Sequence record: ON286974
Length of the DNA: 64,000 nucleotides
DNA from: Escherichia phage W115
Strand: one strand, 5' to 3'
Of the stretch, positions 489-46,466 are shown piece by piece; positions within the stretch are counted from its first letter, which is position 1; each line of letters begins with the position of its first letter. The notes under the pieces are model-generated. The model was not told the origin of the DNA. It worked only from the letters and a program-made list of their open reading frames with translations, and did no database searches. The translations under genes and the position numbers were made by a program.

Positions 489-1730
489 ATGACTCATATT
501 TTTACTGAACTGTTGCGGGAATCTACTTCCTCAGTAGCTAACCAGACAGCGCGACCGCAACTATTATCATTAACTCGCGCGGTAAACAACCTGATTTTCT
601 CTGATCTGGTAGCAATCCAGCCAACGGATCAACCAGTATCTGCATTGTACGGCCTACGTTATCTTAATCATGATGGTCAGATGACTTTCCGAACTGCTGC
701 AACCTACGGTGGCGCGGTTGGTGATCGCACAGAGATTGAAGAGTTTTCAAAAGAAAAATCTTATGACGAAGGCGCACTATTCAAATCAGGCGATGTTGTA
801 TACGAAGTTGTGACCGCTGGTACAGTCGGTGAAGATGCCGCAACTCCAGAAGCTGCGATCTTTAAAGGCGTAATGACAAACAAAATTCGTTTCTATAGCG
901 ATTGTGCATCGGTAGAATACTTTGAAGATAAAAACACCGAAATTGCGTCTACCTCTATGCAGTTTGACAAGTGGCAAGTTAATGTAGGTTCTCGTAAACT
1001 GAAAACCTCATTCACGACCGAATTGATGCAGGATCTTGAGGCAAGCCAAATCAACTCTGAAAACTCTGTAATTGATCTTCTGGCTACTGTTGCTTCCGAA
1101 GAGATCAACAAAGATATTATTCAGAAGTTGATCACTGTATCATCTCGCTATAAAATTAAAGGGATCACCCCTGATGGCGTACTTTCTCTCGTTAGCGTTC
1201 AGGATGCACCAACACAAGCGCGTGAACTTTACCGCTACGCGTGCGAGATGAGCAATCAAATGTTGCGGACTTCCTCCTTTGCTGGTACATACGTTTTGGC
1301 GTCTTCTCGCGTGGTTGGCCTCCTGCAATCATCCGGTTGGATGGAAGAAACCGACAATGCTCTAAGCGAAGGTCGTCTACGTTGCGGTCTGGAAGTGTAC
1401 GCAGACACGACAACACCTTTCGATTATATGCTCGTTGGTTGTAAGCACATGATCGGTGATATGGAGAGTGTAGGTTCTCTGTTCTACTCCCCATATACAG
1501 AAGCCGACGGCGCTGGCGCGTATAAGAGCGTAATTGACCCTAATAGCTTCCAGCATCATGTAGCTATTATGAATCGTTATTCACTCTCTGTCAACCCATA
1601 CACATCAAAAGTTGATCAGGAAGAACACCAGGTCATCAAGGGTGACGATTGGGGTAAAATGGCTGGACGTTCAGAAATGTCCTACATTTTAGGAATCGAA
1701 CTGCCACCGCTTGAGATTGACAACGCTTAA
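489..1730 (+). CDS. 24: head vertex protein gp24 (major capsid protein paralog)
   Basis: Track ORF 423..1730; start moved to ATG 489 (MTHIF...). Motif LIFSDLVAIQPTDQPVSALYGLRY resembles the gp23/gp24 family; length about 414 aa fits gp24; synteny with hoc/uvsW. Confidence 0.85.
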   Translation: MTHIFTELLRESTSSVANQTARPQLLSLTRAVNNLIFSDLVAIQPTDQPVSALYGLRYLNHDGQMTFRTAATYGGAVGDRTEIEEFSKEKSYDEGALFKSGDVVYEVVTAGTVGEDAATPEAAIFKGVMTNKIRFYSDCASVEYFEDKNTEIASTSMQFDKWQVNVGSRKLKTSFTTELMQDLEASQINSENSVIDLLATVASEEINKDIIQKLITVSSRYKIKGITPDGVLSLVSVQDAPTQARELYRYACEMSNQMLRTSSFAGTYVLASSRVVGLLQSSGWMEETDNALSEGRLRCGLEVYADTTTPFDYMLVGCKHMIGDMESVGSLFYSPYTEADGAGAYKSVIDPNSFQHHVAIMNRYSLSVNPYTSKVDQEEHQVIKGDDWGKMAGRSEMSYILGIELPPLEIDNA

Positions 1731-2318
1731 CTAAATATCTAACCAAGACAAGTCAGATCCGCCCAAGATTTTTTCGACGGCGGATCTATTTTCTTGATGA
1801 TATAAGTTAAAACATGGTATCCCATGTCTACGGGCAACATAAACAGCAATTCTAGTTCCTCCAGAAACAATCCCATTAACTTCTTTCGCCCAAAATAACA
1901 CACAATCTACAGGATCATCAAGTGTCTCACCTAAGACTTGAGCAACATTTCTAGAAAACAGATTTTGCATGTATAACGGTATAGAACGAGGATTATCATA
2001 AACGTGTTCTAATTCATCCATCGCCAGATTTTTTTGTTCTAAGGTTTGCCATGCAATCACATCATGACCGTTATGCTTGTGGTCATAAAACTTCCAATTT
2101 GGAATGAAAATTTTTCTATAATCTGGATCGTAATACTTCATGAAAGCATTGTCCATACCGTAAGCCCCTCCAGAATGCGCTACAACGCGATTTTCTGACA
2201 ATACCCTCCCAATGGTACTAGCCATTATCAAAATGTCGCTAGGCGCTTTTCTAGAGCCTATTAAAGCACATCTACGAAGTGGTTTTACTCCAAATAGATC
2301 TTGTAACTGGTCAAACAT
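1731..2318 (-). CDS. DprA/Smf-like SLOG (Rossmann) domain protein
   Basis: 195 aa; IGSRKAPSDIL...VVAHSGGAYGMDNAF and ...IVSGGTRIAVYVARRHGIPCF resemble DprA/LOG motifs (GSR...SGxxxGxD; SGGT..A); GGAGG RBS; sits where T4 has rnlB. Confidence 0.6.
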   Translation of the reverse strand: MFDQLQDLFGVKPLRRCALIGSRKAPSDILIMASTIGRVLSENRVVAHSGGAYGMDNAFMKYYDPDYRKIFIPNWKFYDHKHNGHDVIAWQTLEQKNLAMDELEHVYDNPRSIPLYMQNLFSRNVAQVLGETLDDPVDCVLFWAKEVNGIVSGGTRIAVYVARRHGIPCFNLYHQENRSAVEKILGGSDLSWLDI

Positions 2319-2470
2319 AATATTTCCTCCATAGAAAGCAATATCATACTACAAGTTAATAACAAATACAAGTATCCGCGTAGCGGAAGCGAGCACAGCG
2401 AGCAATAAAACACTTCCAGTAATTGATTAATAAATGTTCGAAACAAATTTTTATTATTCTATAAGATAAG

Positions 2471-2700: not shown

Positions 2701-2731
2701 AAAAGCCGCCCCGAATGACGGCTAATGTTAA
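2701..2731 (-). terminator. weak candidate intrinsic terminator
   Basis: gccg...cggc imperfect hairpin following an A-run on the plus strand, downstream of the 2732..3169 ORF. Confidence 0.3.
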
Positions 2732-3215: not shown

Positions 3216-3491
3216 TCAGGACATTGCCCGTTTGAATGCGTCCATTATAACAGTGTTATTTGGCATGTCAACACGTTTTTGAACTTTATTTTTAAATTTT
3301 TTGTTGATGTGGTGTTTACGATAAACAACCTTTTCACGGTTGGCGTAAGCCTCTCGTGCATCTTTTACCATCAACCATGCCTTAGCCGCATCTTGTCCGC
3401 TGATCCCGCCAATCTTTTTAGCAATATCAACAAAATTAAGACCGTGGTCTTCGCGTAGCATGTAAACCATTAACGCTGTTTTCTTGTCCAT
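3216..3491 (-). CDS. hypothetical protein, possible helix-turn-helix
   Basis: Track ORF 3216..3599 trimmed to internal ATG (MDKKTALMV...) which overlaps the stop of the upstream ORF in an ATGA-type junction. Confidence 0.4.
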   Translation of the reverse strand: MDKKTALMVYMLREDHGLNFVDIAKKIGGISGQDAAKAWLMVKDAREAYANREKVVYRKHHINKKFKNKVQKRVDMPNNTVIMDAFKRAMS

Positions 3492-29578: not shown

Positions 29579-30044
29579 TTTCACCTCGTTTTGTTAAACG
29601 TTCACGAATATCATTGAGGATACTACAAAATTCCGATTCAGTCAATATAGTCTTTAACGGATCAGTTCCACCTATGCTATGACGTAATTTCTTATTTCCG
29701 GTAGCAAGTAATGCTTTACAAAATTCTGGGTTATTCCGTGCCATCGTAACAAATGCCAGATGTACCAGTCTGTAATAATGCTCACTCATTCGATGAATCG
29801 GGCGACCCTGAAAATATAACATGTGATTCTCAATCTTTTCAGTTCTTCCGGTTCTTTTTGCTTTGCCACCGTGCATCAAAAAGATTTCTCTTTGTCTCTG
29901 AGGGTTCTTAAATCTTAGCCCCTGTAAAAATCCTTCTGTGCTGTTAATATCGCAGCCAAATAAACGGAATGGTCTTTTATTGAAATTACTCAATTCACCC
30001 GATGGATAAGGTCCACCCGCATAGATATCAATTTCAGAAGTCAT
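29565..30044 (-). CDS. NADAR (YbiA-like) domain protein
   Basis: 159 aa; IYAGGPYPSGELSNFNKRPF...STEGFLQGLRF...NPEFCKALLATGNKKL... matches the NADAR/DUF1768 pattern (F..G.LSNF ... sEh.fQA.KF ... LL.TG). Confidence 0.65.
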   Translation of the reverse strand: MTSEIDIYAGGPYPSGELSNFNKRPFRLFGCDINSTEGFLQGLRFKNPQRQREIFLMHGGKAKRTGRTEKIENHMLYFQGRPIHRMSEHYYRLVHLAFVTMARNNPEFCKALLATGNKKLRHSIGGTDPLKTILTESEFCSILNDIRERLTKRGENVNS

Positions 30045-46196: not shown

Positions 46197-46466
46197 TTAA
46201 ATATCGAGAGTGTTGGTCGGTTCGTCGATCACTCCCTTCCTGAGCGTTCTATTTACTATACATTCTTGTGTGATCTTGTCAATAATGGACACCGGAATAT
46301 ACTTCTGATAGTGACCATATTCGATAGAGTTTTCCTCTACAAACTGCGTTGTCGCTTCAAGATAAGTCAATCCCTCTTCAACAACCAGTTTTTCGATTGC
46401 AAGACCGTTTGCTGTTTTATTCGCGGCTTTTACCGCATGTTCATTAAGCATTGAACACCCGATCAT
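46197..46466 (-). CDS. 33: late transcription accessory protein gp33
   Basis: 89 aa; ...IEKLVVEEGLTYLEATTQFVEENSI... matches the T4 gp33 core; exact start uncertain. Confidence 0.7.
   Translation of the reverse strand: MIGCSMLNEHAVKAANKTANGLAIEKLVVEEGLTYLEATTQFVEENSIEYGHYQKYIPVSIIDKITQECIVNRTLRKGVIDEPTNTLDI

Follow-up and report, generated by a model that had tools for sequence, protein, structure and literature searches.

The window analysed here, a 64,000-nucleotide stretch of Escherichia phage W115 (sequence record ON286974), encodes on its minus strand, at positions 1731–2318, a 195-residue DprA-clade protein of the SLOG superfamily (hereafter the SLOG protein), the orthologue of phi1p164 of phage Phi1. 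Its conserved DprA-like pocket, together with a C-terminal tail resembling the clamp-binding peptides of its own phage lineage, leads us tentatively to favour a protein that is tethered to the clamp and binds single-stranded DNA (ssDNA) or a flipped base where recombination or repair is coupled to replication. The gene, which starts with ATG and ends with a stop codon at 1731–1733, is real and conserved: the first 6 kb of the window are 90–99% identical in nucleotide sequence to 58 Krischvirus genomes (the RB49/Phi1/GEC-3S group), and a copy with at least 95% protein identity is present in 58 of the 58.

The fold is certainly that of the SLOG superfamily, a three-layer α/β Rossmann-like arrangement, and the DprA/Smf domain is both its nearest characterised relative and its nearest solved structure. 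The AlphaFold2 model, for which a 33-sequence family alignment served as input (predicted local distance difference test, pLDDT, 94; predicted template modelling score, pTM, 0.89), and the match to the PHROG family phrog_768 (‘DprA-like DNA recombination-mediator protein’; E = 2e-60, 204.6 bits) both define a single domain covering residues 15–187, which aligns with the phrog_768 profile end to end (positions 4–181 of 191). The nine best Foldseek matches were all Helicobacter pylori DprA (HpDprA; E = 1.6e-5), the only Pfam match was to PF02481 (DprA) over residues 15–60 (E = 8e-5, 22.3 bits), and comparison of the family profile with PDB sequences gave HpDprA at E = 8e-5 and LOG at E = 0.1. 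By structural comparison, the fold is nearer to DprA than to ThsA, YpsA or LOG; the lead of DprA over the other SLOG clades is small, and only about 130 of the 195 residues superpose on DprA. The LOG family (PF03641) gave no Pfam match even at E ≤ 10, and the W115 protein was not matched by the YAcAr/YpsA-like profiles PF10686 and PF06908. A sequence-only reading made earlier on this DNA had proposed a DprA/Smf-like SLOG fold, and the PF02481 match, the top rank of HpDprA among the PDB matches to the profile and the Foldseek matches all agree with it; the three peptides it quoted (IGSRKAPSDIL, VVAHSGGAYGMDNAF and IVSGGTRIAVYVARRHGIPCF) are all found in the 195-residue translation. The DprA-like label is already in databases through PHROG phrog_768 and through RefSeq, where phi1p164 is named ‘DprA-like DNA recombination-mediator protein’, and the words ‘recombination mediator’ in that name rest on a sub-threshold match.

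Residues that shape the DprA pocket are conserved in the family. Invariant columns in the 33-sequence alignment are G21, S22 and R23; S49, G50, A52, G54 and D56; R123, N124 and Q127; and G153, G154, T155 and A158. The codons of G21-S22-R23 (2250–2258, minus strand, as for all codons of this gene) specify DprA motif 1, G-S/T/A-R, which is fully present and invariant in all 33 sequences; in HpDprA this motif (G50–R52) supplies R52 as the switch, or opener, of the pocket, and the R52E substitution lowers ssDNA affinity 315-fold (PMC3950713). The glycine-rich loop S49-G-G-A-Y-G-M-D56 (2151–2174) aligns with SGGALGVD of HpDprA (SGGAxGxD). Motif 2 of HpDprA is F/L/Y-x-x-R-N/D (F140–N144); the flipped thymine is oriented by its R143 and N144, and ssDNA affinity drops 173-fold in the R143E mutant (PMC3950713). 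The query sequence L120-F-S-R-N fits this motif literally, and its invariant R123-N124 is followed by a family-specific invariant residue, Q127 (R123-N124-V-A-Q127, 1938–1952). The pocket is likened to that of DprA because R23, R123 and N124 are invariant and correspond to R52, R143 and N144 of HpDprA; ssDNA binding by ShosA needs the same two arginines (PMC12961424). The motif spacing reported in the sequence-only reading (GSR…SGGxxGxD and SGGT…A) is thus confirmed, the quoted motifs being invariant columns of the family.

The same reading had offered a LOG-type nucleotide hydrolase as an option, which fails on the remaining conserved loop. LOG proteins are marked by P-G-G-x-G-T-x-x-E with a catalytic Glu (PMC3950713). 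The site is occupied here by G153-G154-T155-R-I-A158 (1845–1862), the loop reads V-S-G-G-T-R-I-A, and the invariant A158 stands at the position of the catalytic Glu; no family-wide acidic residue stands in for that Glu save D56, which is found in DprA too. With the LOG signature absent and an invariant Ala at the catalytic position, and with PF03641 unmatched, the protein is not a LOG hydrolase.

The polypeptide ends in G186-G-S-D-L-S-W-L-D-I195 (1734–1763), in which a Gly/Ser linker leads into a peptide of hydrophobic and acidic residues. Model confidence is low for the last 5–15 residues, with pLDDT falling to 80 for residues 181–190 and to 60 for residues 191–195, and the closest relatives in the alignment have a short conserved peptide at the extreme C terminus. 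In T4, the motif that binds the sliding clamp gp45 is LDFLF, found at the end of gp43 (EKASLDFLFG) and in a loop of the DNA ligase (PMC6212786); gp43, gp55 and gp33 carry interchangeable hydrophobic/acidic C termini, and gp33 contacts gp45 through its own (PMC2988020). SLOG family members of T4-like phages terminate in PTLDFLW(C), RTLDMFL, SPSLDFLF, NLDFLM, SLDHLFSDS or P(T/K)FDIF(A/S)L, in each case after a linker rich in Pro, Gly and Ser. A simple C-terminal pattern picked out this motif in 7 of 14 groups with T4 context, in none of the remaining 29 groups (Fisher p = 1e-4) and in 1 of 698 clusters of neighbouring open reading frames (ORFs) taken as background.

The likeness of the tail to clamp peptides follows lineage. 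In Krischvirus, gp43 ends in SLTDLFDI, gp33 in TNTLDI and the SLOG protein in SDLSWLDI; in Karamvirus, the corresponding ends are SLDNMFDF for gp43, NLDFLYEADD for gp55 and PTFDIFAL for the SLOG protein. The comparator gene 33, which encodes the late-transcription co-activator, lies in the window at 46197–46466 on the minus strand and has the same hydrophobic-Asp-Ile terminus. This terminus is present in 4 of 254 Krischvirus ORFs (at least 50 residues long, from about 157 kb), namely gp43, gp33, the DNA methyltransferase ORF143 and the SLOG protein, and all of the proteins that share it with the SLOG protein act on DNA or in DNA-tracking transcription. We infer that the tail of the SLOG protein would dock on gp45; the presence of a clamp-binding-like tail on SLOG members of T4-like phages is reported here for the first time. 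The methyltransferase end, GTLSDLFDI, is nearly identical to the polymerase end ASLTDLFDI, which suggests that ORF143 may be a clamp-tethered DNA methyltransferase; in Phi1 it lies outside the window on the plus strand (L093:31208–32047, equal to record positions 75207–76046).

Relatives of the SLOG protein are present in 1,428 of 50,697 phage records searched with tblastn, nearly all of them from large lytic phages. They include T4-like phages of Klebsiella, Enterobacter, Serratia, Aeromonas and Acinetobacter, as well as Pakpunavirus, rV5-like, N4-like, T5-like and jumbo phages. When 1.84 billion cluster representatives (50% identity) were searched with the family profile, 4,315 clusters scored E ≤ 1e-3 or better and 2,731 reached E ≤ 1e-10, the members being mostly single-domain proteins of about 180 residues. 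Close relatives are essentially phage-only, with 3 loci among 185,579 bacterial and archaeal species genomes, two of the three on contigs of metagenome-assembled genomes. Few uncharacterised accessory genes are as common in lytic phages as this family.

Genomic context was surveyed for the 150 best profile representatives (P-numbers) and for 80 viral loci (L-numbers). In T4-like phages it is dominated by rnlB, the gene for RNA ligase 2 (Rnl2). The sequence-only reading correctly placed this gene beside gene 24 in T4, where the order is 24 (+), rnlB (−), 24.2, 24.3, hoc, inh, (segE), uvsW and the SLOG gene is absent; in Phi1 it is 24 (+), SLOG gene (−), ORF165, 24.3, ORF167, hoc, ORF168.1, inh, uvsW. 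The further proposal that the SLOG gene occupies the position of rnlB stands only in part: T4 does have rnlB without the SLOG gene, but many T4-like phages carry the two side by side. At 19 of the 80 viral loci, all of them T4-like and representing 7 of 47 dereplicated groups, rnlB is directly upstream of and co-oriented with the SLOG gene, with a median gap of 0 nt over the 19 loci, and the order is hoc, a 24.3-like gene, (a small ORF), rnlB, SLOG gene and, on the other strand, gene 24. The rnlB stop codon overlaps the SLOG start codon in Karamvirus EnA02 (TAATG), and in Slopekvirus KMI10 the two genes are parted by a homing endonuclease gene only. A check of related phages for one gene or the other at this locus, as had been suggested, gave rnlB in T4 and the SLOG gene in Krischvirus, and both together in Karamvirus, Slopekvirus and others. 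In Krischvirus, tblastn with three Rnl2 queries over about 157 of 164 kb (Phi1 1–93.5 kb plus the window) gave no Rnl2 homologue; the former rnlB slot there holds ORF165 (phrog_15652), after which come a terminator and a 413-nt spacer.

Since both genes are adjacent and co-oriented in Karamvirus, Slopekvirus and other T4-like phages, the SLOG gene did not replace rnlB, an idea that is corrected here, nor does it stand in functionally for RNA ligase 2. The rnlB–SLOG gene pair is ancestral, which is a new finding of this analysis. Nearness to uvsW and uvsY, to which the sequence-only reading had appealed, carries no weight, because T4 shows the same order without the SLOG gene; it is inherited T4 synteny. 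A member of the SLOG family in Pantoea phage Phynn (P0007), 48% identical to the query, is labelled ‘RNA ligase’ at NCBI, an annotation slip probably due to its adjoining rnlB. A phrog_2319 protein of 372–390 residues is found in the rnlB slot beside the SLOG gene in one T4-like locus and near the SLOG gene in three others (L026:4886–6004, L035:7494–8648, L040:8706–9851 and L046:2158–3330).

Fusions, a minority feature (about 10 of the 150 best representatives), and neighbouring genes connect the family with two kinds of chemistry. The SLOG domain is fused to NADAR in P0070, P0148 and P0170, to DUF4326 in P0160 and L048, and to RecJ (DHH-DHHA1-OB) in one case, P0161; YAcAr, LDcluster4 and NADAR domains accompany it in the giant proteins P0040 and P0042, and L082 pairs it with an AlkB-like 2-oxoglutarate oxygenase recognised by a sub-threshold Pfam match. 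Very long ORFs (988–2858 residues) with a SLOG domain are carried by the IMG/VR contigs L045:55–8631, L039:363–7128 and L082:3643–7983; those of L045 (2858 residues) and L039 (988 and 1269 residues) have no Pfam match. UvdE genes are neighbours in L035 and L060, and further neighbours are PTH2-like genes and homing, HNH or endonuclease VII-like genes. No gene cluster that might be a conserved operon partner occurs in more than 5 of the 47 groups once the T4 head-gene synteny is set aside. Viral SLOG fusions to Macro, NADAR and DUF4326, with sporadic fusions to nucleic-acid enzymes, have been described before (Iyer et al. 2022, PMC9503650), and viral SLOG domains were proposed to sense or cleave immune signals derived from ADP-ribose (Iyer, Burroughs, Anantharaman and Aravind; PMC9503650). 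Both kinds of link are reproduced here, the contexts of the family being split between DNA repair and ADP-ribose chemistry. In the phage itself, the window contains a weak NADAR-like match (29685–29993, minus strand, E = 0.002), and tk.4 of Phi1 (L093:5753–6190) has a Macro-like match (E = 7e-9); genes for ADP-ribose processing are therefore present in the phage, but far from the SLOG gene.

In the mechanism that we propose, the conserved pocket would bind ssDNA, or a nucleotide or base presented by ssDNA. In enterobacterial T4-like phages, Krischvirus included, the flexible tail (GGSDLSWLDI) would tether the protein to the gp45 clamp by copying the clamp-binding termini of the phage’s own gp43 (SLTDLFDI) and gp33 (TNTLDI). 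Such a tether would bring it to primer–template junctions, gaps or forks, where it may act as an accessory to replication-coupled recombination or repair; recombinase loading, gap protection and the recognition or processing of modified bases are candidate outputs. We count in favour of a DNA-related role the RecJ fusion, the UvdE and endonuclease-type neighbours, the overlap with rnlB, which encodes a nick-sealing ligase, and the family median isoelectric point (pI) of 8.5.

A number of observations weigh against this proposal. The W115 protein itself is slightly acidic, with a predicted pI of 6.4. Its sequence alignment to DprA is limited to the N-terminal ~45 residues, the SAM (N-terminal) and DML1/winged-helix (C-terminal) accessory domains are absent from the 195-residue protein, and both curated DprA thresholds are missed (22.3 bits against a cut-off of 29.6 for PF02481, and 14.4 against 191 for TIGR00732); we therefore place the protein in a phage family of its own, on DprA's side of the SLOG superfamily. 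In motif 2 of the family, position −3 from the Arg is variable and a conserved aromatic residue (F/Y/H) stands at −2 in most members. Most members beyond the T4-like phages have no clamp-like tail, and the acidic C terminus of gp32 (SDLDDLDSLLAM) is loosely like the SLOG tail, so a partner other than gp45 is possible. The commonest fusions, to NADAR (five) and DUF4326 (two), point to ADP-ribose chemistry, as do a Macro gene, which adjoins the SLOG gene in L037 and lies within ~6 kb of it in three other loci, and NAMPT, a neighbour in Slopekvirus and others. A limited literature search found no experimental study of any family member.

The links to NADAR, DUF4326 and Macro are best accounted for if the protein is a counter-defence enzyme or sponge that binds, or cleaves the N-glycosidic bond of, signals of the cyclic ADP-ribose type or toxic ADP-ribose derivatives, a possibility that we regard as the main rival, if a rather unlikely one. 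Fusion to NADAR is seen in relatives that match the family profile at E ≤ 1e-24 and fusion to DUF4326 in others, Macro-domain and NAMPT genes are neighbours, and PMC9503650 gives both the prediction and this pattern of fusions. A scavenger of diffusible molecules would, however, have little use for a clamp-tethering tail, and the DprA-like pocket, in a fold nearer to DprA than to ThsA, YpsA or LOG, would go unexplained. The catalytic Glu of LOG is absent and has no family-wide acidic substitute besides D56, the NADAR-like and Macro-like genes of Krischvirus sit elsewhere in the genome, and the fusions, confined to about 10 of 150 representatives, exist alongside a RecJ fusion and DNA-repair neighbours. 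If instead the protein were a classical recombination mediator, forming a DprA-type dimer that coats ssDNA and loads UvsX or RecA beside or in place of UvsY, its nearest relative, its conserved ssDNA-pocket residues and its family name in databases would all fit, as would the binding of ssDNA and RecA by ShosA, another DprA-like protein (PMC12961424). We nevertheless consider this unlikely: the phage already encodes UvsX and UvsY, T4 recombines efficiently without the SLOG gene, the proximity of uvsW and uvsY is inherited, and the protein, superposing on DprA over about 130 of 195 residues, does not have the accessory domains.

The close linkage to rnlB (directly upstream and co-oriented at 19 of 80 loci, or 7 of 47 groups, with a median gap of 0 nt, the TAATG overlap in Karamvirus EnA02 and nothing but a homing endonuclease gene intervening in Slopekvirus) might mean that the protein is a partner of RNA ligase 2 in the repair of nicks in RNA or RNA–DNA hybrids, for example in preparing or recognising damaged ends. 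The two genes nonetheless occur independently (rnlB only in T4; the SLOG gene in Krischvirus, with no Rnl2 in ~157 of 164 kb), their linkage is confined to T4-like phages in a family that spans many unrelated phage groups, and adjacency in a conserved slot for accessory genes may merely reflect shared ancestry, which makes such a partnership very improbable. We give the least credence to an antitoxin mimic, in which a ShosA- or PsyrA-like activity would neutralise abortive-infection toxins of the ShosTA or PsyrTA type. ShosA acts on ShosT indirectly, through binding of ssDNA and RecA and without touching the toxin (PMC12961424; PMC11961720), and PADLOC gave weak matches to PsyrA (E = 4e-5) and ShosA (E = 4e-4); these are limited to the shared GSR…SGGAxGxD segment (residues 15–61), and the wide spread of the family, across phages of many hosts, speaks for a broader function.

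An extension of the clamp-tethered reading would reconcile both types of context, although we think it quite unlikely in this specific form. NADAR takes ADP-ribose off guanine in DNA. The SLOG protein might be a clamp-tethered fork module that flips modified bases of ssDNA, most probably those ADP-ribosylated by DarT-type defence toxins, into its pocket and recognises or excises them, in a replication-coupled form of anti-defence repair. Its co-workers would be the NADAR, Macro and DUF4326 domains fused to relatives, along with the RecJ, UvdE and ligase functions that are fused to family members or lie close by.

The clamp-tethered reading turns a vague annotation into a testable mechanism, in which the members from T4-like phages have an apparent sliding-clamp tether. 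Should gp45 prove to be the partner of the tail, the SLOG protein would join polymerase, ligase, gp33/gp55 and possibly RNase H on the tool-belt of the T4 clamp, and in Krischvirus a DNA methyltransferase would apparently join them as well.

The immediate surroundings of the gene bear on its expression. A Shine–Dalgarno sequence, GGAGG, was read from the sequence at 2326–2330 (minus strand), 7 nt from the ATG. At the other end, gene 24 (plus strand, stop codon 1728–1730) and the SLOG gene converge with zero spacer, their stop codons abutting as TAA and CTA; a search for terminator-like sites gave none at the 3′ end of the SLOG gene and a single weak one at that of gene 24 (1665–1682, plus strand). 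Upstream, an intrinsic-terminator-like hairpin and T-run after ORF165 (2704–2723, minus strand) separates that ORF from the 413-nt spacer before the SLOG gene. The spacer contains two copies of a 38-nt direct repeat (2463–2500 and 2612–2649), 89% identical and 149 nt apart. A structured RNA in the spacer was considered and rejected, as no Rfam match was obtained there at E ≤ 1. Directly upstream of the SLOG gene, a sigma-70 scan gave only weak sites; a perfect promoter (12/12, TTGACA-16-TATAAT with TG) lies at 3244–3271 on the minus strand, inside the 3′ end of the 24.3 homologue and upstream of ORF165. The late promoter TATAAATA does not occur on the minus strand near the SLOG gene, which led us to discard a late-gene reading; because no late promoter is found upstream, the SLOG gene is probably an early or middle gene, a timing that would fit a replication-phase function.

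Among known systems, DprA/Smf (PF02481; H. pylori 4LJK/4LJR, R. palustris 3MAJ and S. pneumoniae 3UQZ) is the nearest, although the SLOG protein scores below its thresholds. About 45 residues align with DprA by sequence and about 130 by structure. The SLOG protein differs in having neither SAM nor DML1, in an insertion of the family’s own (about residues 73–115), in the additional invariants Q127 and T155 and in a motif 2 aromatic that is shifted by one position; it is also phage-encoded, and its T4-like members carry a clamp-binding-like tail, whereas DprA has none. The DprA-like antitoxins ShosA and PsyrA of ShosTA and PsyrTA (PDB 8ZVA) also differ: ShosA is a bacterial protein of 308 residues that has a phosphoribosyltransferase (PRTase) toxin as partner and binds RecA as a dimer, in contrast to the stand-alone, phage-encoded W115 protein of 195 residues, which has no toxin partner. 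LOG proteins (PF03641) have PGGxGTxxE with its catalytic Glu, where the SLOG protein has no such motif, an invariant Ala at the Glu site and no Pfam match.

The YAcAr/YspA proteins, cpYpsA-related SLOG proteins (PF10686, DUF2493), are likewise small, stand-alone and viral, with the motifs GGR, GDADGVD, RNQ and GGAGT, but they form a different family that keeps a LOG-like PGGxGTxD motif. The distinction matters for ORF83 of DruSM1, which has been called Smf/DprA-like and whose deletion lowers plating on Avs type III (bioRxiv 10.1101/2024.04.14.589459); it has also been predicted to be a LOG-like AMP hydrolase (10.1101/2025.06.06.658234). The C terminus of ORF83, IPYTLAE (from the primer table), is identical to that of phage Seurat gp80 (L004:45156–45548, plus strand). 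This protein, labelled ‘GTP-binding domain’ or ‘Smf/DprA’, is actually a PF10686 YAcAr protein (E = 5e-18) with a PGGAGTMD motif. Seurat gp80 went undetected by the SLOG family profile, and in a BFVD fold search the YAcAr proteins formed a separate, weaker tier (template modelling score ~0.42 versus 0.75–0.79). A link to the anti-Avs3 ORF83 was accordingly rejected, its orthologue being a YAcAr protein invisible to the family profile; as ORF83 belongs to another family, its anti-Avs3 phenotype cannot be transferred to the SLOG gene.

The remaining comparison is with the gp45 clients of the T4 family. A SLOG domain has so far been unreported as a clamp client, and the likeness is one of sequence. 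Like the SLOG protein, gp43, gp33 and gp55 present a hydrophobic/acidic peptide at the extreme C terminus after a flexible linker, and in genera where the SLOG protein ends in SLDFLF or TLDFLW the peptide resembles the SLDFLFG end of T4 gp43.

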